Source of the DNA: Botryllus schlosseri
Lineage: Eukaryota
DNA length: 64,000 bases
Direction of reading: 5' to 3'
Assembly: GCA_051294905.1 (NCBI GenBank)
Contig: CM119371.1
Location: 28,026,001-28,090,000, forward strand
The notes under the pieces were generated by a model that saw only the letters and a program-made list of their open reading frames with translations, made no database searches and was not told the DNA's origin. The position numbers and the translations under genes are program-made. This document shows, piece by piece, positions 1 to 61,315 of the stretch. Within the stretch, counting starts at the first letter, position 1. Each line of letters opens with the position of its first letter.

Positions 1-915
1 GCACCAAGAAAAACCGTGTGAATTTGTAAAGTAGTTAGAAAACTAAACTATTCCGCTACACTAAAGACTTTGACAATCCGGATTTTGTATGGTGTATACT
101 AATTTTACATTGCGGAGTATTCATTATTATGTAGCTTGTACCTCATGCAAGTAAGTCGGACAAATTCGTCGCATGAACACGACTCTAATGGACATAACGA
201 AATGAAAATTTTGTCAAGTAGATCTTTTTCAGTATGCTAAATGTGATGTTGTTCCATACCGAATAGCACTCGTCAAGGTTATACAAGCATAACCCTGGTT
301 TCAACACTTTTACAGCGATTCTTCTTGCTTCCTATAACATCCCACTCGAAGCCCTCGTTATTAGACTATGATCTCAGCCTGAGCTATGTCTTGAAGCCTA
401 CGGGACTCTGCAAATTGTTTCGATTTAAGGAAGCCCATTTCACTTAATGTATCGATGTCTACGGTACTCTACAAAATTTTCTGATTAATTCTCCCTATGT
501 TAATTTACCATAAGAAAGACAATTTGACTCCTAAAGTCCGAAATACTTGTTCGCTTGAGCTAAGCCGCAGCGCCTGGAGTGGAATTTCATAGTTCTTGTA
601 AAAAGTTGTTTGTACACAATATATGTTTAAGGTAAGTCCTACTCATTCATGATTTCGTCCGAGTTTGTATTTTAGTAGTATATACTAATTTACGATACCG
701 CGTTTGTAACTTATGCAAGTACAGGAATATCATAGTTCTTGAACCGTGCTCAATGCTTAATAGACCATTTTTGCTATTTTTCATTACCATAAGTCATTCT
801 GGACCGCGTAAACGCATTGTACGATATAGATGAAACTTATGCAAATCCTAGGATCCTCATTTTCAAAGTAGCTTAGATATCGAAATAAGCTCTGACTCGC
901 TATTCTCCTCATAGC

Positions 916-972
916 ATGGAATTATCACGAGTATCACCTTCGATCACTGAAGAAAAGGATGAAATACTTTAA
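916..972 (+). pseudogene. Truncated 5' copy of the Bcl-2-family gene (MELSRVSPSITEEKDEIL*), preceded by a copy of its upstream region
   Basis: About 620-970 aligns to about 2480-2825, then diverges at a TAA. Mirror copy at 8248-8304. Confidence 0.8.
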
Positions 973-1179
973 GTAGTACTTAACAGTTTCGGAATATAAA
1001 CTAATCGAAAAATTCGGTAATCAATTTCGCTTAGGCTATGCATACAAATGAGGAAAGTTACATCAACGCGTGTTAACGAGTTTTATCGAGTTATCGAATG
1101 ATTTTTTTCTTACATCAAAATAACTAAAATGTGTAACTACATTAAAACGTATCTAAATGAGCTCCAGGGCATTGCGATT

Positions 1180-2210
1180 ATGCAGCATACCAAATTGCAT
1201 CACACATTTCATGATGTAACAACTTTAAAACTAACGCAGTTCTATAGCAACTTTTGCCTAAATCTGTTTTCGGTAGCGTGTACATATACATAGTCAGCTT
1301 TAATAACAGAATTACCATGCTAATATGTGACTCCTCACCTTGAAACTTGGTACGTAGTTGTAGTGTTTATGCAGTATACCAAATTTCCTCACGCATTTCA
1401 TAATGGAACAACTTTAAAACTATCGCGGCTCTACATCAACTTTTTGCGTACATCTGTTTTGCGGGAGCGTATAGCACGTACCTATACATAGTCAACTTTA
1501 ATAACGGAATTACCATGCTTAACATTGCATCCCAACTCTAAACTTGATACGTAGTTGTAGGACATTATGGCAATGCACCATGCTAAATTTCATCACACAT
1601 CTAATGATGGAACACCTTTAAAACTAACGCAGTCGAATACCGACTTTTACGCATATCTGTTTTGCGTGAACATAGCATATACCTATCCATATTCAATTTT
1701 AATAGCAGAATTACCGTGTTAAACATTGAATTCCCACCGTGGAAGTTGGTACGCGGTTATAGGACAGTATAACAATGAACCATACCAAATTCCATCACAC
1801 ATTTCATGATGCTGGAACAACTTTAAAACTAACGCGGCTCTACATCGACTTTTTGCGTACATCTGTTTTGCGGGAGCGTATAGCACGTACCTATACATAG
1901 TCAACTTTAATAACGGAATTACCATGCTTAACATTGAATCCCAAGTCCAAACTTGATACGTAGTTGTAGGATATTATGGCAATGCACCATGCTAAATTTC
2001 ATCACACATCTAATGATGGAACACCTTTAAAACTAACGCAGTCGAATACCGACTTTTACGCATATCTGTTTTGCGTGGACATAGCATATACCTATACATA
2101 GTCAATTTTAATAGCAGAATTACCGTGTTAAACATTGAACTCCTACCTTGGAAGTTGGTACGCGGTTATAGGACATTATAACAATGCACCATACCAAATC
2201 CCATCACACA
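1180..2210. repeat. Tandem satellite, ~204-bp unit, ~5 copies, with alternating A/B variants (~408-bp dimer)
   Basis: The motif aaaacta(a/t)cgc recurs near 1227, 1416, 1620, 1825 and 2028. Mirror array at about 7010-8040. Confidence 0.9.
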
Positions 2211-2770
2211 AAAACTCGTAGATACTCAAGTAGAAGGCGCACCCATAAATATATACTCGACTGCAAGTGGAAGTCGTGATTCTCAAGTAAGCAAAATGTA
2301 AGTATTCATGAGTTGGTTTAAATGAAGATTGTCAAGTATAAGTAGCATAAACATCATATTTGTAGTAGCATGTCCTCAAGATATTTTCAGTTCGGTCTAA
2401 TTTCACGCTGCTTACCAATTTACAAGCCGCAGTGCGAATTAGCATTCATAGAAATTGTACATAATTTTTGCATGTCGGGTGTTTAAGGTAATTCCTACGC
2501 ATTCATGATTTCGTCCGAGTTTGTATTTTAGTAATAATTTACGATACCGCGTTTGTAACTTGTGTAAGTAGGCCTTCAGGAATATCATAGTTCTTGAACC
2601 GTGCTCAATGCTCAATAGACCATTTTTGCTATTTTTCATCCCCATAAGTCATTCTGAATCGCGTAAACGCATCGTACGATATAGATGAAAGTTATGCAAA
2701 TCCTAGGATCCTCATTTTCAAAGTAGCCTAGATCTCGAAATAAGCTCTGACTCGCTATTTTCCTCAAAGC

Positions 2771-3640
2771 ATGGAATTACCACGAGTATCACCTTCGATC
2801 GCTGAAGAAAAGGATGAGATTATATCCGAAGCACATTCCTTGACCAGGAATTTTATCATGTACGAACTCGATGGCTCATGCGTTAAGGTAAATACGAAAG
2901 CAGAGAGAACCTTACGTCGAGTCGGGGATGAAATGTTCGAGCGACATCGAACTGTCCTAAACGCAGTCTCCAAACGTCTCCGCTATAGCGATGTCGAAGT
3001 CAATGAAAAATATAAAGAATATTCACCCGATGAGCGAATGTTCCTGATGATAGCTGATGAAATTTGCAAAGATACCAAAGAAAATTGGGGCAGGATTGTC
3101 GCCCTTTTTGTGTTCGGTAGCATTCTTGCTCGCAAGAACGAGGATGAACATCATGGGGAGCATATAGAAGCTATCATACAGACAGTCGGAAATTACATTG
3201 CTAGCAGAAGACTAAAGTGGATAGTGCGAAATGGAGGATGGGTGGGTGATTTACATGCTTTGCTTAGGATTTATAAATTATCTTTTAGCATGAGATATAT
3301 AGTGTATCCGCTCCCCAGAGCCCATATCATCTCTCGATGATGAAACTCAGCTTTACCTTCCAATTCGGTTCCCGATACGATAACTTTCATCCGTATGATC
3401 ATTAAGGCTTCTATTTTTGTTGTAGGATGGCTTTGTAGAATTCTTTGATAATACCGCTTTCGACTACAATAAAGTTTGGAAGGGACTCGTGTTTGTCGGG
3501 ATCGGACTGACATCTATTGCAATGGCATTATCAAGATAATGGATGTTCGCGTGTTTTGTCTCATGTAATATTTTAAGAATAAAATTCTTCATCGTTTAAT
3601 TGCATCCATTTTACTGTAGGACCTATACAGTTTCTTCTGA
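2771..3640 (+). CDS. Bcl-2 family apoptosis regulator; exon 1 2771-3241, predicted exon 2 3620-3640 (163 aa)
   Basis: BH3 TLRRVGDEM, BH1 NWGRIVALFVFG, BH2 WIVRNGGW. A GT donor follows GGW, which is the conserved BH2 intron position, and the AG at 3618-3619 restores GGW-DLYSFF*. Confidence 0.9.
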
Positions 3641-3997
3641 GAATACTCGAAGGATTGTACCCATATGGAAACCTTCTTTATACTTTTATTTTTTCTAATT
3701 TCTACAGCTACGTAAGGAAATTGTTAGGATTACCCAGAATACATTGCAGGTCAAATTTGATTCAATTACGAGCATTATAGCGACAGAGATTTACGATAGT
3801 GTAAAATGACCTACCTTACGATATCAAATTTCGTCTTCTCTCCGAGTGGAAATCTCATGTTATATAATATTGTCCATACCGAACAAATATAAATTTGCCT
3901 GTGCTGTTGCTTTGCAAGAATACTTCGCTCACATAGTAACCAATTTCTGGTGGATCCCGAATCGATATAGACAGAAGTGCGGAAAGTTACATTGACA

Positions 3998-4472
3998 TGT
4001 CTTAACTTCTGCCATAGAAGTTGCGTTTCTGACTACTTAAAAGTTGCTAGAGCTCACGCTGTTTTATCGTCGTATTGACGTTCGTTTTGAAAAGTATAGC
4101 ATGCTCAATGGTTCATGTTCACATTATACAGTTAATTAGGTTTTGCGCAAAGAAAAATAAAATTCACGCAAAAGTCGCTATTGCTCCGCGATGATTTTGA
4201 TGTTGTTCCATGCCGATTTGGGAGGTAGTACACTTTGTCTTAACTTCTGCCATAGAAGTTGCGTTTCTGACTACTTAAAAGTTGCTAGAGCTCACGCTGT
4301 TTTATCGTCGTATTGATGTTCGTTTTGAAAAGTAGCATGCTCAATGGTTCATGTTCACATTATTCAGTTTAATTAGGTTTAGCGCAAAGAAAAATAAAAT
4401 TCACGCAAAAGTCGCTATTGCTCCGCGATGATTTTGATGTTGTTCCATGCCGATTTGGGAGGTAGTACACTT
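3998..4472. repeat. Two tandem copies of a ~238-bp unit (mirror at 4748-5222)
   Basis: tgtcttaacttctgccatagaag occurs at about 3998 and 4236 with colinear continuation. Confidence 0.9.
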
Positions 4473-5579
4473 AATTTCGTAAAGTACGCATATTCGCGGC
4501 GTGTTCAATTAACTCATGTGGCTCTAAAATGTAGTAAGCAGGGTGATGGGTATTCGTTGAGTTGAATAACCATAAAAAATATTCCCGCGCCCTAGGTTGT
4601 AGGGGTTAGGAATAGTTGGGTTTAGGAGGGCGCGGGAATATTTTTTATGGTTATTCAACTCAACGAATACCCATCACCCTGCTTACTACATTTTAGAGCC
4701 ACATGAGTTAATTGAACACGCCGCGAATATGCGTACTTTACGAAATTAAGTGTACTACCTCCCAAATCGGCATGGAACAACATCAAAATCATCGCGGAGC
4801 AATAGCGACTTTTGCGTGAATTTTATTTTTCTTTGCGCTAAACCTAATTAAACTGAATAATGTGAACATGAACCATTGAGCATGCTACTTTTCAAAACGA
4901 ACATCAATACGACGATAAAACAGCGTGAGCTCTAGCAACTTTTAAGTAGTCAGAAACGCAACTTCTATGGCAGAAGTTAAGACAAAGTGTACTACCTCCC
5001 AAATCGGCATGGAACAACATCAAAATCATCGCGGAGCAATAGCGACTTTTGCGTGAATTTTATTTTTCTTTGCGCAAAACCTAATTAACTGTATAATGTG
5101 AACATGAACCACTGAGCATGCTATACTTTTCAAAACGAACGTCAATACGACGATAAAACAGCGTGAGCTCTAGCAACTTTTAAGTAGTCAGAAACGCAAC
5201 TTCTATGGCAGAAGTTAAGACATGTCAATGTAACTTTCCGCACTTCTGTCTATATCGATTCGGGATCCACCAGAAATTGGTTACTATGTGAGCGAAGTAT
5301 TCTTGCAAAGCAACAGCACAGGCAAATTTATATTTGTTCGGTATGGACAATATTATATAACATGAGATTTCCACTCGGAGAGAAGACGAAATTTGATATC
5401 GTAAGGTAGGTCATTTTACACTATCGTAAATCTCTGTCGCTATAATGCTCGTAATCGAATCAAATTTGACCTGCAATGTATTCTGGGTAATCCTAACAAT
5501 TTCCTTACGTAGCTGTAGAAATTAGAAAAATTAAAAGTATAAAGAAGGTTTCCATATGGGTACAATCCTTCGAGTATTC

Positions 5580-6449
5580 TCAGAAGAAACTGTATAGGTC
5601 CTACAGTAAAATGGATGCAATTAAACGATGAAGAATTTTATTCTTAAAATATTACATGAGACAAAACACGCGAACATCCATTATCTTGATAATGCCATTG
5701 CAATAGATGTCAGTCCGATCCCGACAAACACGAGTCCCTTCCAAACTTTATTGTAGTCGAAAGCGGTATTATCAAAGAATTCTACAAAGCCATCCTAAAA
5801 CAAAAATAGAAGCCTTAATGATCATACGGATGAAAGTTATCGTATCGGGAACCGAATTGGAAGGTAAAGCTGAGTTTCATCATCGAGAGATGATATGGGC
5901 TCTGGGGAGCGGATACACTATATATCTCATGCTAAAAGATAATTTATAAATCCTAAGCAAAGCATGTAAATCACCCACCCATCCTCCATTTCGCACTATC
6001 CACTTTAGTCTTCTGCTAGCAATGTAATTTCCGACTGTCTGTATGATAGCTTCTATATGCTCCCCATGATGTTCATCCTCGTTCTTGCGAGCAAGAATGC
6101 TACCGAACACAAAAAGGGCGACAATCCTGCCCCAATTTTCTTTGGTATCTTTGCAAATTTCATCAGCTATCATCAGGAACATTCGCTCATCGGGTGAATA
6201 TTCTTTATATTTTTCATTGACTTCGACATCGCTATAGCGGAGACGTTTGGAGACTGCGTTTAGGACAGTTCGATGTCGCTCGAACATTTCATCCCCGACT
6301 CGACGTAAGGTTCTCTCTGCTTTCGTATTTACCTTAACGCATGAGCCATCGAGTTCGTACATGATAAAATTCCTGGTCAAGGAATGTGCTTCGGATATAA
6401 TCTCATCCTTTTCTTCAGCGATCGAAGGTGATACTCGTGGTAATTCCAT
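5580..6449 (-). CDS. Bcl-2 family gene, mirror copy; exon 1 6449-5979, predicted exon 2 5600-5580
   Basis: Encodes the same protein as the 2771-3640 copy. Confidence 0.9.
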
Positions 6450-9219
6450 GCTTTGAGGAAAATAGCGAGTCAGAGCTTATTTCGAGATCTAGGCTACTTT
6501 GAAAATGAGGATCCTAGGATTTGCATAACTTTCATCTATATCGTACGATGCGTTTACGCGATTCAGAATGACTTATGGGGATGAAAAATAGCAAAAATGG
6601 TCTATTGAGCATTGAGCACGGTTCAAGAACTATGATATTCCTGAAGGCCTACTTACACAAGTTACAAACGCGGTATCGTAAATTATTACTAAAATACAAA
6701 CTCGGACGAAATCATGAATGCGTAGGAATTACCTTAAACACCCGACATGCAAAAATTATGTACAATTTCTATGAATGCTAATTCGCACTGCGGCTTGTAA
6801 ATTGGTAAGCAGCGTGAAATTAGACCGAACTGAAAATATCTTGAGGACATGCTACTACAAATATGATGTTTATGCTACTTATACTTGACAATCTTCATTT
6901 AAACCAACTCATGAATACTTACATTTTGCTTACTTGAGAATCACGACTTCCACTTGCAGTCGAGTATATATTTATGGGTGCGCCTTCTACTTGAGTATCT
7001 ACGAGTTTTTGTGTGATGGGATTTGGTATGGTGCATTGTTATAATGTCCTATAACCGCGTACCAACTTCCAAGGTAGGAGTTCAATGTTTAACACGGTAA
7101 TTCTGCTATTAAAATTGACTATGTATAGGTATATGCTATGTCCACGCAAAACAGATATGCGTAAAAGTCGGTATTCGACTGCGTTAGTTTTAAAGGTGTT
7201 CCATCATTAGATGTGTGATGAAATTTAGCATGGTGCATTGCCATAATATCCTACAACTACGTATCAAGTTTGGACTTGGGATTCAATGTTAAGCATGGTA
7301 ATTCCGTTATTAAAGTTGACTATGTATAGGTACGTGCTATACGCTCCCGCAAAACAGATGTACGCAAAAAGTCGATGTAGAGCCGCGTTAGTTTTAAAGT
7401 TGTTCCAGCATCATGAAATGTGTGATGGAATTTGGTATGGTTCATTGTTATACTGTCCTATAACCGCGTACCAACTTCCACGGTGGGAATTCAATGTTTA
7501 ACACGGTAATTCTGCTATTAAAATTGAATATGGATAGGTATATGCTATGTTCACGCAAAACAGATATGCGTAAAAGTCGGTATTCGACTGCGTTAGTTTT
7601 AAAGGTGTTCCATCATTAGATGTGTGATGAAATTTAGCATGGTGCATTGCCATAACGTCCTACAACTACGTATCAAGTTTAGAGTTGGGATGCAATGTTA
7701 AGCATGGTAATTCCGTTATTAAAGTTGACTATGTATAGGTACGTGCTATACGCTCCCGCAAAACAGATGTACGCAAAAAGTTGATGTAGAGCCGCGATAG
7801 TTTTAAAGTTGTTCCATTATGAAATGCGTGAGGAAATTTGGTATACTGCATAAACAATACAACTACGTACCAAGTTTCAAGGTGAGGAGTCACATATTAG
7901 CATGGTAATTCTGTTATTAAAGCTGACTATGTATATGTACACGCTACCGAAAACAGATTTAGGCAAAAGTTGCTATAGAACTGCGTTAGTTTTAAAGTTG
8001 TTACATCATGAAATGTGTGATGCAATTTGGTATGCTGCATAATCGCAATGCCCTGGAGCTCATTTAGATACGTTTTAATGTAGTTACACATTTTAGTTAT
8101 TTTGATGTAAGAAAAAAATCATTCGATAACTCGATAAAACTCGTTAACACGCGTTGATGTAACTTTCCTCATTTGTATGCATAGCCTAAGCGAAATTGAT
8201 TACCGAATTTTTCGATTAGTTTATATTCCGAAACTGTTAAGTACTACTTAAAGTATTTCATCCTTTTCTTCAGTGATCGAAGGTGATACTCGTGATAATT
8301 CCATGCTATGAGGAGAATAGCGAGTCAGAGCTTATTTCGATATCTAAGCTACTTTGAAAATGAGGATCCTAGGATTTGCATAAGTTTCATCTATATCGTA
8401 CAATGCGTTTACGCGGTCCAGAATGACTTATGGTAATGAAAAATAGCAAAAATGGTCTATTAAGCATTGAGCACGGTTCAAGAACTATGATATTCCTGTA
8501 CTTGCATAAGTTACAAACGCGGTATCGTAAATTAGTATATACTACTAAAATACAAACTCGGACGAAATCATGAATGAGTAGGACTTACCTTAAACATATA
8601 TTGTGTACAAACAACTTTTTACAAGAACTATGAAATTCCACTCCAGGCGCTGCGGCTTAGCTCAAGCGAACAAGTATTTCGGACTTTAGGAGTCAAATTG
8701 TCTTTCTTATGGTAAATTAACATAGGGAGAATTAATCAGAAAATTTTGTAGAGTACCGTAGACATCGATACATTAAGTGAAATGGGCTTCCTTAAATCGA
8801 AACAATTTGCAGAGTCCCGTAGGCTTCAAGACATAGCTCAGGCTGAGATCATAGTCTAATAACGAGGGCTTCGAGTGGGATGTTATAGGAAGCAAGAAGA
8901 ATCGCTGTAAAAGTGTTGAAACCAGGGTTATGCTTGTATAACCTTGACGAGTGCTATTCGGTATGGAACAACATCACATTTAGCATACTGAAAAAGATCT
9001 ACTTGACAAAATTTTCATTTCGTTATGTCCATTAGAGTCGTGTTCATGCGGCGAATTTGTCCGACTTACTTGCATGAGGTACAAGCTACATAATAATGAA
9101 TACTCCGCAATGTAAAATTAGTATACACCATACAAAATCCGGATTGTCAAAGTCTTTAGTGTAGCGGAATAGTTTAGTTTTCTAACTACTTTACAAATTC
9201 ACACGGTTTTTCTTGGTGC

Positions 9220-11560
9220 GTTCCAGGATAAATGCAATTTTTTCGCGCTTTTTTATTTTTTCAATTAAATTGGAGCTACTGTATATTATTAATCGCCTAT
9301 ATTTAAATTCGGTGTGCTAATGCGTTGAGGTTGAAGCTAAACATCCTATTTCATGCGGCCAAGAAGACTAGCACCGCGTATCCGAATTTAGCATACCGAA
9401 AAATATCTACTTTACAAAATTTTCATTTCTTTATGTCCCTTAGAGTCGTGTTCATGCGACGAATTTGCCCGACTTACTTGCATGAATTACAAGCTACATA
9501 ATACAACTAGTTAACACGCGTTGATGTAACGTTCCTCATTTGTATGCATAGCCTACGCGAAATTGGATGATATTTGAAGGCGAAGAACTAACGAAATTTA
9601 AAAATAGCAAAAATAAATCGAAAATTTGCGAAGTCCTACCTTGCAATATTTCAGTTTTACAAATTACCCTCGAAGTGAACCAGCATGTTGGATATTATCG
9701 AAACGATTTCTCATGTCGCGTTCCGGGATAAAATGTAGTTTTTCGCTCTTTTTTATTTTTATTTAAATTAGTATTCATTTTACAAAAAACGTCGTGTAAA
9801 GGTGAAGTACTTGTACATTTCGTAGTGCTCAAGTATAAGTTTTTTGCGTAAAGTCTATCTTGCATTTAGTTGTCAGCTCTGAAAGCAAGCAAAGTTTGTG
9901 TATTTGCGCAACATCGAAATTTGTACACTTCACGCTTATCTTATGTCGAAAACATAAGCTAGTTAACAATCTTTCGAATCGTATTTATTTTTAAAAAACC
10001 TAAATATGCCGCATCAAAACTTCGTAAATTTTTTCGATTAGTTTTTTCGTTTCTATCTACTTTAAAAGACTCATTCAGACCTCGAACCTACGCGAACACT
10101 TGTTCATTGGAACTTACGTCCAACGCCAAAAGCTCTACTTTACAAAATTTTCGGAGTACCGACTTTTTTGGGTAAATTCTGTGATGCGCTTAGTTACCAA
10201 CTCAGAAAGCAAGAAAAAGTTGTGGTATTTGATCAACATGGAAATTCGTCAACTTTGCGTTTAGGTTATGTTGAAAACATGAGTTACTTAACAACATTTC
10301 GACTCATAGGTGTGGATAATTCACCGTACATAGTATTAAAGTCATTAATGCATCGGTCGCAATTCTGCTCGAATACAAGTACAAGTAGAGATTTCAAAGT
10401 TAGTGGGCTTTTTTATTTTTATTTTTTCATTAAAATTGGAGCTACTGTATATTATTTATCGCCTATATTTAAATTCGGTTTGCTAATGCGTTGAGGTTGA
10501 AGCTAAAACATCCTATTTCATGCGGCCAAGAAGACTAGCACCGCGTAGCCGAATTTAGCATACCGAAAAATATCTACTTTACAAAATTTTCATTTCTTTA
10601 TGTCCATTAGAGTCGTGTTCATGCGACGAATTTGTCCGACTTACTTGCATGAATTACAAGCTACATAATACAACTAGTTAACACGCGTTGATGTAACGTT
10701 CCTCATCTGTATGCATAGCCTACGCGAAATTGGTTACCGAATTTTTCGATTAGTTTATTTAAAACTGAAACTGTTAAGTACTACTAAAAGTGTTATAAAA
10801 TGTGAAAAAGTGTACAAGTAGAATTAATATTATGTCATGAATAAGTAGTTTACAAATTCATACGATTTTTCTTGTTGCGTTCCGGGATAAAATGTAATTT
10901 TTCGCTCTTTTTTTCCTATTTTTTATTAAAATTAGTATTCATTTTACAAAAATGTCGTGTTTTGACTTTTGAAAATGGAAAATGCGTGAGCTGGACTAAC
11001 TTTTACGTAGTTCGAAATCGCTACTTCTATACATTATTTCAAAGTATTTGTCAGTCATCGCGGCACCGCTCATATTGCGCACCATCTATTAATTTCACGG
11101 ATAACAAATTACTCCTGCTTTTATCAGAGGATACTTTCCTAGGGTTTGCCTACTAACAGTACTTAGTTTAGATTATTGAAAAATATAGTGATTGAAAATA
11201 GATCACTGGATTATAGTTTACAGAAAACTCCACAATTCTATGTGACGTCCTTGCATGCCAACAACCTACTATTCGCCACCTCATAAACACTTGAGTAGGC
11301 CTACATTTGATGCGTGTGGGGAAAACCTAGGTAAATTTTCATATGCATTTAGTTTCCAGCTCTGAAAGCAAGCTTGGTATATGATCAATAGCAACTTTTG
11401 CGTGAACTCCGTTCTATTTCACTTCATACCTACACAATGTAGATAGTCTATTCGAATAATTCGATGTATAATTGAACTTTCCTCTGCATGATCATCAGGG
11501 CTTCTATTTTTTGTTGCAGGGCAACTTTGTTGTAGCCGAAAGCGGTATTATCTAGCAACA
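9220..11560. repeat. Patchwork of direct copies of palindrome-arm modules
   Basis: 9250-9570 matches 10410-10730; 10680-10790 matches 8143-8250; 11480-11550 resembles the Bcl-2 intron (about 3385-3470). Confidence 0.8.
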
Positions 11561-11639
11561 AGGTTTAAATGACTCGCCTCCGGCGTTTATTGACCGTATT
11601 ACCCTATTCTCGTCATGCAAAAATTATGCATGTATTAGT

Positions 11640-11935
11640 ATGAAGCTCAGATGCTGCAAAGTGTGTGAGACTGCCTGTAAATGGTGCGAAGCAGCGACTC
11701 TAATTTCCCGACTTATAGCAAACAACGACGCTGAAATTTTACTTCAGACGCAGCAAAGTGTGTGAGACCGCCTGTAAAATTGCGCGAAGGTACATTTCTC
11801 GGCTTATAACAAATAACGACGCTGAAATTCTACTTCAGATGCAGTAAAGTTAATGCGTTTGGCTATATAAATTGCGCGAAGGTGCATTTCTCGGCTTATA
11901 GCGAATAACGACGCTGAAACTCTACTTCAGATACA
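11640..11935. repeat. ~91-bp tandem repeat, ~3 copies
   Basis: aacgacgctgaaa..tacttcaga occurs near 11724, 11815 and 11906. Confidence 0.8.
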
Positions 11936-12261
11936 GCAAATGCGGCAAACAAAACGGTCAGATCGAACGCAAGAACTCGGATCGCAGCGTCGGATGGCAG
12001 CAAAGCGGTGTACCTCGAAACATCAACCGATCTGGAGGATTTCAGCACGCGAATCGACGCAATGACGATCAACGATATCATTGATATGCTCTTTTTTCGA
12101 AATAAAATGAACTCGTACACTATACAATGCTATTTCAATGAGACTGAGTAAAGTGTTAGAAGATACGAAAAGCGCGGAATAGTATGACATGTGGTGACTA
12201 TAGGGTTCGAACCTACAACCTAGATCAGGCGCTGTGCGTCATATAGATGCTGCAATCAATG

Positions 12262-12425
12262 CGGTGATGATGTGGCAATGGATGATGTGGCACTATAGGT
12301 GTGGGGCTTGATGATGTGACACAGATGAATGTGGCAGGTGATGTGGCAATGGGCGGATGATGTGGCAATAGGTGTGCTATAGGTGCGGCAATGGGCGGAT
12401 GATGTGGCAATGTAGGCGTGGCAAT
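12262..12425. repeat. Degenerate minisatellite (gatgatgtggcaatgg-type)
   Basis: Repeated gatgtggca motif; it also generates His/Pro-rich spurious ORFs. Confidence 0.8.
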
Positions 12426-14090
12426 TAAGGCGACGTGGCCTTCTGGGATTGGCGGGCGTATATTTGATCAAACCCTACTACTTCTGTCATGTGACGCAAT
12501 AATTGGTAATGTATACTACTCCAACTACCTCATTCCTTGAGTGACGACAGCTTACAAGGAATCATGATGCAACGTACTAATTGCTCAATTGATAATTACA
12601 TTTTTTCTGAAACATTGTCTTCACATTTACACTATTTACAAACCGTGATATTATATTGGTCATATTTCAAACGCTCTCTCACTAGGATTATAGATCAGGG
12701 ATCAGAATACCATTCGAAATTCTTGCCACGCTAACCCCAACCAAATACTGTACTAAAAATCAGGCAGATCGCTGCAGTATTGCTCGCCTGTAGCTGGGAT
12801 ATTTTATGGGTTCGCCTATAGTATAAATTATTTTGCGAATATTTACTTCAAATTTGCATGTTCCTCATGCCAGTGTACCGGAAATGTGATGATATTCTTA
12901 TGGAGCAGGGGCGGGCAACTTCTCCAATCGGCGGGCCGGATATAGGAAAACTAAGTTAGGCTACTTGGCGGGTCGGATTGCTGAATCGATACATTATTCG
13001 CCCATATGTACAAGGAATAGATCGTATTTCATGAATGTATTTTGACGACAGCAATGTTACTTCAGCGCCATTTCTCGCCGATAATGACGAAGACAATGCG
13101 GGTTTGAGAACAGTATTGTCATAGTCGCCGCCATGTCTGCTTCTCTCTGATCAATAAACTCACGGTGCAATCCTTACTTAAGATTTCAAATCGTTTGATA
13201 AGCCCGGTACCCAAAATTTACCAAGATATCAATTCATTAGGGTTGAGTACATCGTACATGCCGATAATGCAAGTCTTCTCGCTTCGACAAACTTACGCAT
13301 AAGCTCCATGGACGCTCTCACACGCTGCGCAGTGCGAACACGTATCTAATAACAGTCATACAGTCACTAAAATCTGACGTTTAGGCAAGTAGTGGGGAAT
13401 CTCGGCCGACTGAGGTCACGGGCCCGCGGGTCGTATATGTTGTCCGTCCTTATGGACGGTCCTAGATAACAATCTGCTGACTATCCCATTTTGCTCGCGG
13501 GAGCTGTAGAGTAGACGTACACGGTACCTCACCACCGTGAAGTAAACCTCACCAAAACGGACTCTGTAAAACTATTACCAGGAATTAGATTCGCATCATG
13601 GCTAGTTTAAGCGATAATGACATCCAAAATATCAATAATACAAGTGCTAGAAAAGGTACTATACTTATGATATTAAAGTATTTGAAAGTATGGAATATGT
13701 ATCAAGTATGATATGGAAAATGGAACAATGTTGGTATGGTATGGAAAATTGCAAGTATGGTATGGAGAGAGTAAGGCAAGTATGGAGTATGGAAAATCCT
13801 CGTTCCATACCATACCATACCATGCCCTGGTTGGCAGTTCACAAGTGTAGTAGTGTGGTGGGTGTTTCGATATTATTTTTGTAATGCCCGGGGAATTATA
13901 ATGATATTTTGCGCTACTGAATGTGATCAGGTGTCATCCATGCCCAGTTTATATTTCAAAGTTGAGATGTTGACTACCAGAGGGTTTGTCATCATTGAAT
14001 TAAGTATCACTGAGCTATCGTAGGGTTGCCATACGTCCAGATGTCCGTAATGTTAGTATTAAAACTGCCTCCGAGGGAAAATACTAGAAC

Positions 14091-15330: not shown

Positions 15331-16797
15331 ATGAACCCTTTCCGACTTCGTAACGGCTGCGATGATCATATTTGCGAGGTATGCGGGAAAAGTTTCATCA
15401 TCAAATCCTATCTGACAAGACACATGAAAATTCACGCCGTGTCGAAGGAGTTTGAGTGCGACGTATGCGGAAAAAGCTTTGTGCAGAGGCCTTACCTAAT
15501 AACTCATCTCGCGTTCCACACGATAAAGAAAGATTGTAAGTGCGGCATATGCGGGAGATCATTCAACACTAAATAGAAGTTGAGGACACACGTGAGCATC
15601 CACGCCGGGATAAAAGCGTTTGAGTGCGAAATATGCGGGAAAGGTTTCATAAAGAAGGAACATTTGAAAGCACATTATTTGAGTCATATTGGAACGAAAA
15701 ATTACCATGAGTGTCAGATATGCGGCAAAGGATTCGGGAAGAAATCTTATCTGAGATGTCATTATTCGATTCATACTGAGGCGAAGGATTCCGAGTGTGA
15801 TATATGTGGAAAAGGTTTCGTGCAGAAATCTCATCTTAGAGTTCATTATTCGATCCATACTGAGGCGAAGGATTACGAGTGTGATATATGCGGAAAAGGT
15901 TTCCGACAACATTCTGACCTGAGCAGCCATTGTTCGATCCATACTGAGGCGAAGGATTACGAGTGTGATATATGCGGAAAAGGTTTCCGACAACATTCTG
16001 ACCTGAGAAGTCATTATTCAATTCATACTGGAGCGGAAAAGTACCAATGTCGTGTATGCAAAAAAGTTTTTAAAACAAGATCTCAACTGAAAATACATTA
16101 TTTGATTCACACCAGAGATAAGGAACATAAGTGTGAAATCTGCGGGAAAGCATTTCGTTGGAAGTCGAACCTTAACGGGCACGTGAAGGTGATACACTGG
16201 AAAAGGACAAACTATGAGTGCGATATATGCGCGAAGGCTTTTCTGCAAGAGACTCATCTAAGACATCATTATGCCGCACACATGGACGCAAAATACCAAT
16301 GCGAGGTGTGTGGGAAACGCGTCAATCTCAAATATATGGAAAGACACATGAACATTCACGTCGGATTGGAAGAGTTTGAGTGCGAGGTATGTGCGAAACC
16401 ATTCGCCGACAAATTTCAAATGGGAGCACACATGAAATTTCACACCGGATTAAAAGAGTTTGCATGTGAGATTTGTGGTAAAGTATTCAGATCGAAGCCG
16501 TACGCTCAGATACACATGGAGTCGGCCCACTTAAACACGAAAGTATATGAGTGCGATACATGCGGTAAAGTGTTTCGGCAAAAATCAAACCTTTCGGCTC
16601 ACTATTCCGTCCACACGGGAACGAAATATCCGTGTGCAGTATGTGGGAAGATATTCAATGTCAAATCCTACTTGAGACAACACGGCAGGATTCACTCGGG
16701 AGTAAAAAAGCATGAGTGCGATATATGCGGGAGGATGTTCAGTGCAAAGAGTTCTCTTGTGTGTCACTTACGAATCCATAGAAGCGACGGAAGGTAA
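15331..16797 (+). pseudogene. C2H2 zinc-finger gene, 17 fingers, single exon, with one in-frame TAG at 15574-15576
   Basis: ORFs 15331-15576 and 15580-16797 share a frame. SFNTK*KLRTH aligns to SFNFKSNLRNH in the paralog. Confidence 0.9.
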
Positions 16798-38117: not shown

Positions 38118-39355
38118 ATCAAATATTATTTGACAAGACACATGAAAATCCATGCCACGTCGAAGGAATTTGAGTGCGACATATGCGGTAAAAGTTTTTT
38201 GAAAAGGCCTTACCTAACAAGTCATCTCTCGTTCCATGCAGCAAAGAAAAATCATAAGTGCGACATATGCGCCAGATCATTCAATTTCAAATCGAGCTTG
38301 AGAAATCACATGAAAATTCATGCCGGGGTGAAAGAGTTCGAGTGTGAAATATGCGGGACAGGATTTGTAAGGAAGGCTCTTCTAAAAACACATTATTTGA
38401 GTCATACTTGGACGAAAGATGGCAAGTTTCAGGTATGAAGCAAAGATTTCGCCCAGAAATCCTATCTGAAACTGCATTATTTGATTCATGCGAAGGCGAA
38501 GGATTATGAGTGTTATATCTGCGGAAAATCTTTTCGAGAAAATTCCAGCCTGGAAAAACATTATTCGATTCATACTGGAGCAAACGACTACGAGTGTCAA
38601 ATATGTGGAAAGGGTTTCAAAACAAGATCTCAACTGAAACGTCATTATTTGATTCACCGATTCCCACCGATCATTAGGAACATCCGTGCAAATTTTGTGG
38701 GAAAACGTTTCTTAAGAAGTCGTATGTTATGGCGCACATCAAGATGATACACTCGAATACCAGAGAATATGAGTGCGATATATGCGCGAAAGCTTTTGTG
38801 CACGAGTCTCACCTAAAGTATCATTATTCTTCCGTCCACATGGAAATGAACTACCAGTGCGAGGTATGTGGTAAGCCATTCAATCTCAAATCCAGTATGG
38901 TTAGCCACATGAAAATTCATGTCGGATTGAAAGAGTTTGAGTGCGATGTGTGTGCGAAATCATTCGTAGAAGAATCCCACATGAGATCACACATGAAATG
39001 TCACACCGGATTGAAAGATTTTGTATGCGAGATTTGTGGTAAAGCATTCCGTTCGAGGTCGTACATTAAGATACACATGTAGTCGACTCACTTACAGACA
39101 AAAAGATATGAGTGCAATATATGCGGGAATGCCTTTCGACAAATGACCAACCTAATAGGTCACTGTACCGTCCACACGGAAAAGCAATACGAATGTGAAG
39201 TATGTGGAAAAATATTCAATCTCATATCCAACTCGATAAGGCACAGCAAGATTCATTTGGGAGTAAAAAAGCATGAGTGCGACATATGCGGGAGGACATT
39301 CAGTGAAAAGAGTTCTCTCGTTCGTCACTTACGAATCCACGGAAGCGACGGGTAG
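38118..39355 (+). pseudogene. C2H2 zinc-finger pseudogene, paralog of the 15331 and 59624 genes
   Basis: Four ORF pieces in different frames and a TAG at 39080-39082. The 5' end is replaced by a repeat that recurs inverted at about 48960-49075. Confidence 0.9.
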
Positions 39356-39367
39356 TAAGGATGCGAC

Positions 39368-39941
39368 CAGGGTTGTAACCAAGTCACAAGGCTCCGAGTC
39401 ACAAGTCAATCTCACTTTTATAGTTTTGACTCGAGTCAAGTCGAGTCATTTCAATTCACCCCCGAGTCAAGTCCAAGTCAGCGAGCAGAGGGTCGAGTCC
39501 GAGTCATGGAATTATGACTCGAGTCCGAGTCCGAGTTATTGTGTAGACTGCTCAGTTTCAAGTTAACATCTTGGTAAACCCACTTTTTATATCTCTGTTT
39601 GATGATATCGAATGTGTCGCATTTATAATATACCAATTTTCCTCACTTTTAGCAGTTTCTGGTCGCACATTCAAGTACCAATACCAACAGACGAAATCCT
39701 AATAGTGTGTTGGCTTCGGAATTACAATGAAATGTCGGTCTTGGCAGTCTGAGTCTCGAGTCAATGACTTGGTTCGAGTCATGCGCAATGACTCGAGTCC
39801 AAGTCGAGTCAATACACATACTGACTCGAGTCGAGTCATTTCCGTACTTTGAAAAATGAACACGAGTCAAGTCGAGTCATCAGAAAATCGTGACTGGAGT
39901 CGTACCCGAGTCGAGTCATGACTCGAGTCATTACAACCCTG
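39368..39941. mobile_element. hAT MITE with GACTCGAGTC subterminal repeats, in the zinc-finger 3' flank
   Basis: cagggttgtaa / ttacaaccctg termini; perfect TSD gatgcgac; paralogous 3' flanks lack the insertion. Confidence 0.92.
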
Positions 39942-52904: not shown

Positions 52905-53050
52905 ACCTATAGTGATCTTATGTGACTTGAAAAGAGGCCTTTCATGCAATCTTATGAACATTTTAGAACGCAGCATTAGACAACATTATACATTACATTA
53001 AACTATAGAAGTAGTGCAGCTAGTAACAAGATTTTCTGGCCAAGTCGGAA

Positions 53051-54271
53051 ATGATCCATTCTCAAAGTCATAATGACTGCAATGAAAATAGATGCAAGGT
53101 TTGCGGAGAAGGATTCATCAACCGGTCTAGCTTCGGACTACATATGAAATTTCACTCTGCACTCAACGACTTTGAGTGCTACATATGCGGAAAATCATTC
53201 GTCACCAAATATTGCATGAAAATGCACATGAAAATTCACTCCGTTTCGAAAGAGTTTGAGTGCGACATATGTGGAAAAAGCTTTTTGCAAAAGTCCTGGC
53301 TGAAAACTCATTTTATCCGCCACACGGGAAAGAAAGACTATAAGTGCGACATATGCGGGAAGCGATTCAGCAACAACTCCAATATGAGAGAACACGTGAA
53401 AATTCATTCCGCAGTAAAACAGTTTGAGTGCGAAATCTGCGGGTATGGCTTCGTAAGCAAGTCTAAATTTAGGGCACATTATTTGCGTCATACAGGAGCG
53501 GCGAAAGATCACGAGTGTCAAATATGCGGGAAAGGTTTCGAGATAAAATCGAATCTGGAAACACATTATTTAATTCATACCGGAGAAAAAGAACACAAGT
53601 GCGACATCTGTGCGAAAGCTTTTCGTAGGAAGTCGCACATTAGGGAGCACATGAAGAGGATACACTCAAATATGAGAGAATATGAGTGCGATATATGCGG
53701 GGAAGCTTTTGTGCACGGGTGTCACCTGAAATATCACTATTCCGTCCACATGGGACCAGGATATCATTGTGAAGTATGTGGGAAACAATTTGTTCTCAAA
53801 TCCATGATGAGAACACACATGAATAGTCTGCACTTCGGATTGAAAGAGTTTGAGTGCGAAATATGTGCGAAACGATTCGCCGAGAAATCCGACATGAGAA
53901 GACACATGAAACTTCACTCCGGATTGAAGGAGTGTGAGTGTGAGATTTGTGGTAAAGCATTCCATTCGAAGTGGTACGCACAGAGACACACTGAGTCGGC
54001 TCACTTAGAAGCGAAAGGATATGAGTGCGATACATGCGGCAGTGTCTTTCGACATCAGTCTAACCTCGGAGCTCACTATTTCATCCACATGGAAAAGAAA
54101 TACCCGTGTGCAATATGTGGGAAACTATTCAATGTCAAATCCTCCTTGAAAAAACACACCAAGATTCACTTGGGAGTAAAAGACTACGAGTGCGAGATTT
54201 GCGGCAGGACATTTCGTTCAAAGAGTAATGTTGTACGTCACTTCCGAGTTCACGGAATCGACAGGGAATAA
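53051..54271 (+). CDS. C2H2 zinc-finger protein, 14 fingers, 406 aa, single coding exon
   Basis: Intact ORF of tandem CxxC-x12-Hx3-4H units with no other domain. Confidence 0.92.
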   Translation: MIHSQSHNDCNENRCKVCGEGFINRSSFGLHMKFHSALNDFECYICGKSFVTKYCMKMHMKIHSVSKEFECDICGKSFLQKSWLKTHFIRHTGKKDYKCDICGKRFSNNSNMREHVKIHSAVKQFECEICGYGFVSKSKFRAHYLRHTGAAKDHECQICGKGFEIKSNLETHYLIHTGEKEHKCDICAKAFRRKSHIREHMKRIHSNMREYECDICGEAFVHGCHLKYHYSVHMGPGYHCEVCGKQFVLKSMMRTHMNSLHFGLKEFECEICAKRFAEKSDMRRHMKLHSGLKECECEICGKAFHSKWYAQRHTESAHLEAKGYECDTCGSVFRHQSNLGAHYFIHMEKKYPCAICGKLFNVKSSLKKHTKIHLGVKDYECEICGRTFRSKSNVVRHFRVHGIDRE

Positions 54272-58241: not shown

Positions 58242-59624
58242 TTACTTTCCGTCGCTTCCGTGGATTCGTAAGTGACGCACAAGAGAACTCTTTACACCGA
58301 ATGTTCTTCCGCATATATCGCACTCATGCTCATTTACTCCCGAGTGAATCTTGCTGTGGATTCTCAAGTAGGATTTGACATTGAATATTTCCCCGCATAT
58401 TTCACACGGATATTTCGTTTCGCCGTGGACGAAATAGTGATGTCTAAGGTTAGACCTATGTCGAAAGACTTTACCGCATGTATCGCAATCATACCCTTTC
58501 GCATTTAAATGCGCCGACTCCGTGTGTGTCTGAGTGTTATACTTCGAACTAAATGCTTTACCGCAAATCTCACATTGAAACTCTTTAAATCCAGCATGGT
58601 ACTTCATGTGCGCTCTTAATTGAGATTCGTTGGCGAATCTTTTCGCACATACATCGCACACAAACTCTTTCAATCCGACGTGAATGTTCATGTGTCTTTG
58701 CATATTGGATTTGCGATCGAATCGTTTCCCACATACCTCGCATTGATATTTTATGTCCATGTGGGCGGCATTATGATATCTTAGATGATTCTCATGCAAA
58801 AACGCTTTCCCGCATACATCGCACTCATATTTTTTCATATTCAAGTGTATCGCCTTCACGTGACCCTTAAGGTTCGATTTCCAACGAAATGTTTGCCCAC
58901 AAATCTCGCACTTATGTCTCTTATCTCCGACGTGAATCAAATAATGACTTTCCAGGTGAGATCCGGTTTTGAATCCTTTTGCGCATATTCGGCACTCGTA
59001 ATCTTTTGCTGCAGTATGAACCGAAAAATGACTTTTCAGGTCACATTTTTTCCGGAAATCTTCGCCGCATACCTGACACACGTAATCTTTAGTCTTAGTG
59101 TGAATCAAGTAATGATTGTCCAGTCTACATTTCTGTCCGAAACTTTTGCCGCATATATGGCACTCGTAATCTTTCGCCTTGGTATGAATCAAGTGATGTC
59201 TTTTCAGATTACATTTCTCTTCGAAGCCTTCGTCGCATATACGACACTTGTAATCTTTCGCTCCAGTATGACTCAAATAATGTGTTTTCAAATGACCCTT
59301 TCTAGCGAAACTTTTCCCGCAAATTTCGCACTCACACTCTTTCACCCCAGCGTGAATTTTCATGTGATTTCTCAAGTTTGATTTGAAATTGAATGATCTC
59401 CCGCATATGTCGCAATTATGATCTTCCTTTTTCGCGTGAGACGCGAGATGATGTATTAGGTAAGGCCTTTGCACGAAGTTTTTTCCACATATGTCGCACT
59501 CAAACTCCTTCGAAGGGGCGTGAATTTTCATGTGCCTTGTCAGATAAGATTTGATGATGAATCTCATTCCACATACCTCGCAAATATTATCACTGCAGGC
59601 GATACGATGCTGGGATTGGGCCAT
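58242..59624 (-). CDS. C2H2 zinc-finger protein, 16 fingers, 460 aa, single coding exon
   Basis: Intact ORF colinear with the 15331 paralog and sharing its 3' flank. Confidence 0.93.
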   Translation of the reverse strand: MAQSQHRIACSDNICEVCGMRFIIKSYLTRHMKIHAPSKEFECDICGKNFVQRPYLIHHLASHAKKEDHNCDICGRSFNFKSNLRNHMKIHAGVKECECEICGKSFARKGHLKTHYLSHTGAKDYKCRICDEGFEEKCNLKRHHLIHTKAKDYECHICGKSFGQKCRLDNHYLIHTKTKDYVCQVCGEDFRKKCDLKSHFSVHTAAKDYECRICAKGFKTGSHLESHYLIHVGDKRHKCEICGQTFRWKSNLKGHVKAIHLNMKKYECDVCGKAFLHENHLRYHNAAHMDIKYQCEVCGKRFDRKSNMQRHMNIHVGLKEFVCDVCAKRFANESQLRAHMKYHAGFKEFQCEICGKAFSSKYNTQTHTESAHLNAKGYDCDTCGKVFRHRSNLRHHYFVHGETKYPCEICGEIFNVKSYLRIHSKIHSGVNEHECDICGRTFGVKSSLVRHLRIHGSDGK

Positions 59625-61315
59625 TTCTAGCTTTGCGAGTACACTTTGCGACTTTAGCTGCGATGAGAATACAATTCGATCTATCGATCTTTCATCAAAT
59701 ATCGTGAGAAAGTTAGTTTATTGCTGCGTTCTAAAATTTTCAAAAGATTACACCATGAAAAGATATGCTTTTTTCGAATCACAAAAGTTCATTATTCGTT
59801 ATAACATACCTAGAGGTAGGGAGAGTAGTTATTGCTATTACTCAACTAGAAGTAGAACTACAATACCGTCCAATTCTGATTAATTACAACCGGAAGTACC
59901 GCGATTTTCAGAGCTTTTCAACACTACCTGTGGTAGAAGTCGAAAATAGTGGTAGGAGAAGAACTATGGATTAACATTCTCGGTTTAAAGGTAAATATGG
60001 CTCCTTCGACGAGAGGGCTTCCGACTACCGTCTTAACAGACCAAAAATATCTTCAACCGTGGCCGGAATACACTGTTATGCAGCATTTTTACGGTCCGCA
60101 GTCATCATCATCAGAACATCCATTCCGTACCAATGATCTACATCTAGCCTACTTGCTATAATAGTCGAACCGACGACAATTTCGCGGGTTCCAGCCGCTC
60201 CACATCGTATACGTCGACTCTATTCGGTTTGAATCGTCCGTATAGGCAAGTGGTTCTTAACCTTTTTTTCCTCCAGCGCCCCCTTTCGAAAATTATCGTG
60301 CTCTAGCGCCCCCCAACCCCATATTGTCCTCCTTTTTTAGGTTTTTGAAAATGTCATTCGGGGAGCCTAAACGTCTTGCTTTATGGCAATTCGTCCACCT
60401 TGACAGCTTTTAGAGCAAAGATGGTGGATAGTTTCGAGTGATAATGGGCATAAATGATGCTAAACAGGAAATCGTGGTTCTAACGTAAGCCACGACTTTG
60501 TTTAGTCAACCAACGGAAAATCTAGAAGAAAACTGTATTTCGGGAGTAGAGCCTGAAAGTTGTCCCTTATTTTAGTCAACCAACCGCAATTTTGTGGTAA
60601 ATTTACCATTTGTTCCGGATTTTACTCACGTATTGTAAGTCTGAATATTTTGAACCAATGTCCTCCTTTCCCGATTCCAAAATATGGTAACCCTACGTAA
60701 CAGCACTTCGTCAGTCCCCCTAAAAACGATTGTCTTGAGCACCCATAGCGTGATAAACCAAACTTCTGGGGGCTTCGCCCCAAAGAACCCCGTCGCGTGA
60801 TTTTGATGGTCAGCAAAGTTTGTGTGGCCTTGTCGCCCTAGGCGTCACAATTTTCTATAATATGCATGAATGAATAGGTGGTGATTGCATATATATGTAT
60901 TATCCTCTCAGCCCACGTAATCGTGAGCTGCTGTCTCGGAAAATGAGGGTCACGTAATTTATAATTAAACATATTCGGGCGTGCCCGTTGGTACAATTAC
61001 TTCATTACATGTTGTTATTTTGTTACCTCTTGTCCGCTATATAGTCAAAAGATATTGAAACGCATTAACGTATTAAGCTTAAATAAGCACATGATTCAAA
61101 ATTGGTATTTCTTCACTGGCAAATAATTTTCTGGGATGGATGTTATTTGTCCTGTGGGGTGCAGATTGTGACGACATGATAATTCGGCACGGGCGATTTA
61201 AGCACCAATGGACAATTAGGCTTAAATACATCGGAGTTTACGTTCAACATAAGGGCAATCCTCTTCGGCTAAGGTTTTCTCGATGGCTATGCGGTTCGAA
61301 ATCGGAACTGAAGAC

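Follow-up and report, generated by a model that had tools for sequence, protein, structure and literature searches.

A 64,000-nucleotide stretch of the Botryllus schlosseri genome (GenBank assembly GCA_051294905.1, contig CM119371.1, positions 28,026,001 to 28,090,000 of the forward strand; hereafter the window) begins inside a long palindrome with two convergent Bcl-2-family genes. The palindrome is almost certainly a mobile element with Maverick/Polinton ends that belongs to a large dispersed family. The window copy is probably a 15.7-kb integrated palindromic element that has captured a host Bcl-2 gene and spreads as a helper-dependent satellite. Palindromes of such length and perfection tend to be dismissed as short-lived accidents or faulty assembly; in this genome, an abundant mobile family normally takes that form.

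The palindrome, its ends and its centre

The preliminary description of this DNA reported a palindrome of at least 9.2 kb. When the left neighbouring sequence is added, the full span extends from window position -3263 to 12482, a length of 15,746 bp. A gapped comparison of the arms (7,857 and 7,856 bp) gives 14 substitutions and one 1-bp indel, or 99.8% identity. The left arm starts with AGTAGT at -3263 (G000:C1:28022737), and its in-window part occupies 1-4593; the complete right arm occupies 4627-12482. Between the arms lies a non-palindromic, G-rich spacer of 33 nt (4594-4626), the fold-back loop. The seven mismatches previously found by eye (169/9051, 1363/7857, 1564/7656, 3422/5798, 3689/5531, 3764/5456 and 4108/5112) are recovered exactly by pairing position i with 9220-i. 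As had been stated, the predicted coding sequence is free of all seven: exon 1 (2771-3241) and exon 2 (3426-3539) are untouched, and the mismatch at 3422/5798 is within the intron acceptor tract of the Bcl-2 gene.

The ends of the element, AGTAGT...ACTACT, correspond to the Maverick/Polinton motif 5'-(AGT)2//(ACT)2-3', with the terminal ACTACT at 12477-12482. This is the commonest end motif of vertebrate Mavericks in the excerpted text of PMC8097293, where (AG)3//(CT)3 is the alternative. The terminal pattern occurs at 258 + 267 = 525 places in the genome and at 0 in the control, and a 1-kb probe matches many contigs, mostly as inverted pairs. The elements of contig C1 form a set of 26, of which 25 were paired from the terminal pattern and one was completed separately. 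The 6-bp target duplication is perfect in 21 of the 26, has one mismatch in three and two in the window copy, and is unrelated in one. Among other elements with termini, it is perfect in 16 of 19 as judged by eye, which gives 37/45 for both sets. At the window copy, the right target site is TCTGTC (12483-12488) and the left is GCTGCC, an imperfect duplication matching at 4 of 6 positions. The earlier idea of a giant foldback element with a captured apoptosis regulator was right in kind, and the element can now be specified as a Maverick/Polinton-ended dispersed family. Two other origins had been proposed. The first, in which a host locus was recently amplified by fold-back, can be rejected: the host gene is single, outside any such element and on another contig. 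A conversion-maintained host locus would be a single fixed locus with the host's own gene, whereas the palindrome is multi-copy and mobile and the host gene is elsewhere.

The palindrome shares only its outermost sequence with non-palindromic Mavericks of the same genome that carry core genes (helper-type copies). The common part is limited to about 540 terminal bp (537 bp, 88-95%), and at the right end (11946-12482) it consists of a 255-bp terminal repeat, 88% identical to a helper-type copy, and 282 bp from beside one helper end (94-95%). Positions 7-30 from the end form a hypervariable 24-bp segment (12453-12476), which is the same at both ends of the window copy and recurs at one terminus of a helper-type Maverick. 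These 24-mers were compared in 44 of 49 elements, five being omitted because their ends are missing or variant. There are 42 distinct 24-mers among the 44 elements; both ends are alike in 37/44, and copies differ from each other at a mean of 13 of 24 positions. The segments are built from recurring short words (20 distinct words at positions 13-18, compared with 44 in shuffles). All four combinations occur in 56 of 66 distant site pairs, and the ends therefore recombine on a fine scale. As a guess, hypervariability could serve to escape host DNA-binding proteins.

The centre of the palindrome is conserved. It comprises an A-tract and ATTCCCGCGC stem with a G-rich loop containing TAGG (4574-4646), and this arrangement is common to palindromes of very different content. 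A strict version of the motif marks 174 loci genome-wide (174/175), with 0 in the control; the window's own variant falls outside the strict pattern. The stem word is missing from all nine (9/9) non-palindromic Mavericks examined, and the centre motif was not found in metagenome contigs. The shared centre therefore suggests a single palindrome lineage that has its own site for folding back, rather than repeated accidents. One-sided central gaps of 240-817 bp are present in at least nine copies. Such gaps would be expected from post-insertion trimming of the centre, a behaviour of palindromes.

The possibility that the locus is a long-read fold-back chimera or an assembly artefact can practically be dismissed. 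The assembler does stumble on such elements, and other family copies lie at 100-N gaps with a tripled arm. However, the window copy contains no N, both of its boundaries coincide exactly with Maverick termini, the flanks being unrelated, and one centre is common to at least 174 loci. In addition, short-read contigs of two other studies match the centre exactly and span it without differences (X10 record 12, 4575-4676; X3 record 16, 4564-4656). Run X7 gave no contig across the centre, and the listed pieces of run X1 that span it carry gaps or substitutions relative to the window. An assembly chimera is ruled out by the target duplications together with the centre-spanning contigs, and for the family it is already refuted. 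Palindromes that are likely mis-assembled occur at 100-N gaps at G000:C5:24.80 Mb, C3:4.21 Mb, C9:5.21 Mb and C16:20.03 Mb, and two of these have a tripled arm and two centres.

The Bcl-2 cargo and its transcripts

The left-arm Bcl-2 gene is on the plus strand. Exon 1 (2771-3241, from a putative start codon) contains what we take to be a BH3-like motif (LRRVGDE), BH1 (NWGR) and BH2 (GGW). A GT-AG intron of 184 nt (3242-3425), defined by spliced reads, follows the BH2 tryptophan, and its place and length are as in the host gene. Exon 2 (3426-3539) encodes 37 residues and a stop, including a hydrophobic C-terminal tail that is probably a membrane anchor. The AATAAA signal and the poly(A) site of family transcripts are at 3578-3599. 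The mirror gene is on the minus strand (5681-6449; exon 1 5979-6449, intron 5795-5978, exon 2 5681-5794). The two genes face each other as described, and the spacing, earlier given as about 1.9 kb, is 2.14 kb from stop to stop and about 2.0 kb between poly(A) sites. The protein matches the Bcl-2 domain PF00452 with E=1.5e-22 (80.5 bits, as opposed to a curated cut-off of 31.4), and the BH1 and BH2 motifs are present. Its closest solved structures are Mcl-1 and BCL2-like 10, with a weaker match to Bax. Among named proteins, Styela clava bcl-2-like protein 2 is nearest (49%), which by itself suggests an ascidian host, and close matches are also NR13-like. The closest matches (Mcl-1, BCL2L10 and NR13-like proteins) make it likely that the window protein is anti-apoptotic.

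A search with the Styela clava protein identified a single host Bcl-2 gene (L118, G000:C14:19037185-19040688). It resembles the fetched elements over the gene itself only and lies outside any such element. The exon 1 proteins of the host and window genes are 70.5% identical, and the DNA identity is 75% in exon 1, 51% in the intron and 71% in exon 2. The tree places the host gene as sister to all eight element copies (support 100/99), with a host branch of 0.048 compared with 0.24 for the element stem. Judged by these comparisons, the element gene is a DNA-level capture of the host gene, because the two share the same 184-nt intron, the host has a matching exon 2, and the host gene has a sister position. 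The likely entry route is a set of three non-palindromic Mavericks in which Bcl-2 replaces the polymerase while integrase, ATPase and capsid are kept (G000:C11:8194283-8209000, C1:15.40 Mb and C1:8.32 Mb). Two of the three are 14.7 kb long, and their Bcl-2 genes form a sister clade to those of the palindromes. In the three copies that lack the polymerase, no exon 2 was found by a motif search covering 600 nt.

The genome contains at least 150 element-type Bcl-2 copies, mostly in convergent pairs, and 149 of 150 are stop-free over the matched stretch. Exon 1 is open in 34/34 full-length copies, and exon 2 is full length in 30/31 of the copies in which it was located. The dN/dS of window exon 1 is 0.33-0.62 relative to nine more diverged copies. 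Four Bcl-2 copies in alternating orientation are found at both G000:C10:21.04 Mb and C9:13.24 Mb, representing either two adjoining palindromes or a concatemer.

Expression was examined in two raw RNA runs chosen by species label, with 3-4% of each read. The Bcl-2 family accounts for 51 + 34 reads; the intron is crossed by 4 + 1 of them, and a poly(A) tail is present at 3599 in three. The family mRNA thus ends about 1 kb short of the centre, with sparse coverage beyond on both strands. The preliminary description had suggested that read-through would yield a hairpin RNA, possibly a dosage switch for cell death. The spliced family mRNA, with poly(A) at 3599 and little coverage toward the centre, lends no support to this idea or to read-through hairpin RNA as a main product. 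It is very improbable that the locus is a host regulatory one, in which an inverted Bcl-2 pair silences or tunes its own mRNA through hairpin RNA. Low-depth opposite-strand reads over the 5' region, at 3796-3939 and at 4372-4515 are compatible with such a role, and rare read-through from at least 150 mostly convergent gene copies could feed small-RNA silencing. Yet Bcl-2 is absent from most family members, and the host gene is single and elsewhere. The listed differences show no surplus of A>G changes of the kind that A-to-I editing would leave, in a comparison swamped by paralogues. With at least 150 mostly open copies, some of them transcribed, the multiplied host apoptosis gene may influence cell death or cell competition in this animal.

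Helper elements and a possible replication cycle

The window element has no core Maverick gene detectable by tblastn with seven helper proteins, and its sole long frame is Bcl-2. It is not an autonomous Maverick, because the core genes are absent. This is the common condition on C1, where three of the 26 elements have the full core gene set, two have Bcl-2 replacing the polymerase, and the other 21 lack every core gene of the family. Of these 21, 18 consist of 47-100% inverted repeat. Several helper-type copies are 16.9-17.8 kb long and carry integrase (rve, E=3e-13), A32 ATPase (E=4e-9) and BIR (E=2e-18) domains by Pfam. Exact 20-mers place the polymerase marker at 29 or more sites and the capsid marker at 35 or more. 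Family-B motifs of the helper polymerase can be read from its sequence, and the protein also gives weak RAP/DUF559 and Pox_F12L matches. The polymerase profile PF03175 has no match in the genome, as it has none in the control, and a guessed 20-base polymerase pattern found no match either.

The helper encodes a predicted capsid protein with a double-jelly-roll fold match and a Pox_A32 packaging ATPase. The capsid candidate has 425 aa. A single-sequence fold was unusable (pLDDT 33), and the model used was a 7-sequence fold (pLDDT 64), which matches the capsid proteins of Sputnik, iridovirus and PBCV-1 with E=5.6e-14. The modelled fold thus matches that of a double-jelly-roll capsid protein. Sequence searches of solved structures gave no match for the helper polymerase or capsid, PHROGs named none of five helper proteins, and no relative of the capsid was found in the viral contigs searched. 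A candidate helper protease has no Pfam match, its label being based on motif and position alone.

The helper polymerase contains an inserted RAP/DUF559-like (Vsr-type) nuclease stretch (L032:6754-7116), as in marine pPolB2 enzymes. Speculatively, such a mismatch nuclease could act on hairpin heteroduplexes. A second Maverick lineage is nested in a palindrome at G000:C1:20425964-20460221. Its polymerase, integrase, ATPase, protease and major capsid are 59-70% identical to those described here; for its minor capsid and BIR, the figure is about 40%. At its edge lies a Bcl-2 match of 69% identity.

That helper proteins would mobilise the palindromes in trans is suggested by their termini, by their target sites and by the absence of genes for this purpose within them. 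The helper's protein-primed polymerase would copy the satellite through a hairpin form. The displaced strand would fold at the conserved centre into a duplex of about 7.7 kb, whose open end would be a normal Maverick origin. Since the arms would be the two strands of one duplex in this hairpin, both would change together whenever mismatches were corrected, a folded-back end was re-primed at the centre or hairpins recombined with one another. To attain the lower size limit of the capsid, the half-size unit would have to be carried as an inverted dimer of about 15 kb, and this requirement would explain why most of the element is filler. The helper capsid would then package the satellite, and the helper integrase would insert the copies. 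Bcl-2 would be an optional cargo that likely prevents death of the host cell while the element amplifies, a role that the helper's IAP gene would share.

Length, arm symmetry and relation to known systems

Sixteen of 40 palindromic elements are undisturbed: they have both ends, contain neither a gap nor a one-sided block, and lack less than 800 bp at the centre. They measure 14,492-15,751 bp with a mean of 15,291 bp and a coefficient of variation of 2.7%, which is 87% of the 17.65-kb helper length, but the force of this pattern is reduced by the filtering. The arms of the 16 share 0-63% of their sequence, one sister pair excepted. Five longer palindromes come to 15.5-16.4 kb once one-sided blocks are removed, and no paired element below 4.8 kb is present among the matches listed (100 termini). 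According to the excerpted text of PMC4189039, adenovirus genomes rearrange when they are shorter than 75% of unit length, and both direct and inverted dimers of a 15-kb helper-dependent vector are packaged. We consider it moderately probable, slightly less so than the satellite explanation as a whole, that palindrome length is set by a capsid size floor. If it is, the integrated copies are indirect evidence of animal Maverick particles and give a lower size limit of the capsid.

The symmetry of the arms is informative about replication. In 4,300 gap-free columns from the 8 arms of four sister copies, there are 42 symmetric sites, 13 private to one arm and 0 shared asymmetric sites. Six copies including the window element (1,280 columns, partly overlapping the first comparison) have 24 symmetric, 9 private and 0 shared asymmetric sites. 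The window element has the inner 2.4 kb of each arm in common with its sisters, and its outer arms are different and still symmetric. The terminal 24-mers can be wholly different between sister copies that are 98.6% identical. Symmetric differences, symmetric replacement of outer arms and matching end 24-mers would all arise because the arms are two strands of one hairpin duplex. We are fairly confident that the arms are reset between copies via a hairpin form. With a reset in each cycle, arm divergence would serve as a clock in the manner of LTRs and would report on how Mavericks replicate.

Several observations weigh against the satellite explanation, and some of them favour other accounts. 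Particles, free linear forms and hairpin forms were not observed, and two older copies measure 12.0 and 13.0 kb. Only 2 of 85 RNA reads are at least 99% alike to the window copy, and expression is established for the family rather than for this copy. Window exon 1 differs from its five closest sisters by 3-5 non-synonymous and 0 synonymous changes. Bcl-2 has no match in 15 of 21 C1 palindromes; therefore, the gene is not needed for spread. The palindromes could instead be a non-autonomous Maverick derivative that moves within the nucleus only and is never packaged, its length reflecting ancestry or a polymerase or integrase limit. The lack of observed particles, a single centre that may indicate one ancestor, and the copies of 12-13 kb agree with this account. 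It does not readily explain why elements with mosaic contents are held at 14.5-15.75 kb, or why polymerase-less copies retain capsid genes at 14.7 kb. Copying within the cell should also favour short end-only derivatives, and these are absent among the matches listed. Overall, a nuclear-only derivative is unlikely.

The resetting of the arms has difficulties of its own. Within the same 16 copies, the target duplications have diverged further than the arms (4/96 sites compared with 0.11%), which gives some scope to chromosomal conversion. The window copy, which pairs a 4/6 duplication with 99.8% arms, fits ageing and in-place conversion better than resetting at insertion. Two 237-239-bp tandem units lie next to the centre (3999-4473, mirrored in the right arm), and two sister copies both lack one such unit on one arm, a possible inherited asymmetry. 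The arms of Y-chromosome palindromes are kept alike by arm-to-arm gene conversion. The same process could act on mobile elements after insertion and be the main cause of arm identity here, and the diverged target duplications, including that of the window copy, favour it. However, one-sided insertions and central deletions stay uncorrected in many copies, and the 13 private one-arm variants persist. Ends also match in non-palindromic Mavericks, where they are 14.7-24 kb apart (7/8 with 0-1 difference), and conversion between arms does not account for terminal 24-mers that change wholesale between close sisters. Chromosomal conversion as the main cause is thus improbable, and resetting through the hairpin form of the satellite is preferred.

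The window element behaves like a non-autonomous, helper-dependent Maverick. It shares the (AGT)2//(ACT)2 ends and the 13-25 kb size class of animal Mavericks/Polintons (adintoviruses), and its family shares their 6-bp target duplications, as given in excerpts of PMC8097293, PMC8502044 and bioRxiv 10.1101/2023.08.22.554363, and the helper-type copies here carry the Maverick polymerase, integrase, ATPase and capsid genes. Unlike Mavericks, it has no core gene, and its inverted repeat is the whole element instead of 100-1,500 bp. The palindromes also differ from the helpers in their conserved central stem-loop and in outnumbering them about sixfold (at least 174 versus 29-35). Bcl2 and IAP homologues have already been noted in adintoviruses (PMC8502044, excerpted text). 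The known genes closest to the cargo are Bcl-2-family genes of the Mcl-1/NR13 type and viral Bcl-2 homologues, but it differs from these in retaining the host intron, in having two mirror copies per element and in its at least 150 genomic copies.

Another parallel is with helper-dependent (gutless) adenovirus genomes, which in the excerpted text of PMC4189039 consist of ends and filler, need a helper, form an inverted dimer from a half-size unit and have a size floor of about 75%; packaging of the present family would be analogous. Gutless adenovirus is engineered and non-integrating, whereas the present palindromes occur naturally, are inserted in the genome at many places and have a fixed centre. 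Fungal linear plasmids have hairpin derivatives in which one end is duplicated in inverted orientation and which a protein-primed polymerase copies through hairpin intermediates. Esteban et al. 1997 reportedly described palindromic defective replicons of the same kind in the protein-primed replication of phage phi29. In contrast to these short palindromes that arise afresh, the present elements are 15 kb long, share one conserved centre, are integrated and carry a gene. Long near-identical inverted arms are also found in Y-chromosome palindromes and in foldback (FB) transposons. Unlike the former, the family is dispersed, has Maverick ends and 6-bp target sites and occupies no fixed host locus; unlike the latter, it is not made of short tandem terminal arrays. 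No description of a palindromic Maverick/Polinton was found in the literature searched, and an earlier mention may exist in Kapitonov and Jurka 2006, Esteban 1997 or Repbase; the term 'palindrom' was not found in the Maverick papers searched.

A broader view, which we hold tentatively and find nearly balanced between acceptance and doubt, is that the palindromes are natural, inherited 'gutless vectors' in animals. They would be Maverick satellites with a half-size hairpin unit and their own conserved fold-back site, dimerised to meet the capsid floor and symmetrised in every cycle. They would shuffle a 24-bp terminal code with the helper, would have multiplied a working, intron-containing host anti-death gene to 150 or more copies and could pass from cell to cell or from one individual to another inside borrowed particles.

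Other features of the locus are minor. A block of tandem repeats of about 200 bp (1178-2210, mirror 7010-8042) is non-coding filler that is also present in other palindromes. A 91% copy of the Bcl-2 5' region (2480-2820) lies at 624-965, with its mirror at 8255-8596. Several palindromes contain a 149-aa frame (L009:6062-6508) and one contains a 244-aa frame (L074:3283-4014), neither with a Pfam match. The element is surrounded by a tandem cluster of C2H2 zinc-finger genes, located in the window at 15577-16797, about 38118-39370, 53027-54271 and 58242-59717, and the cluster extends to the left of the window.

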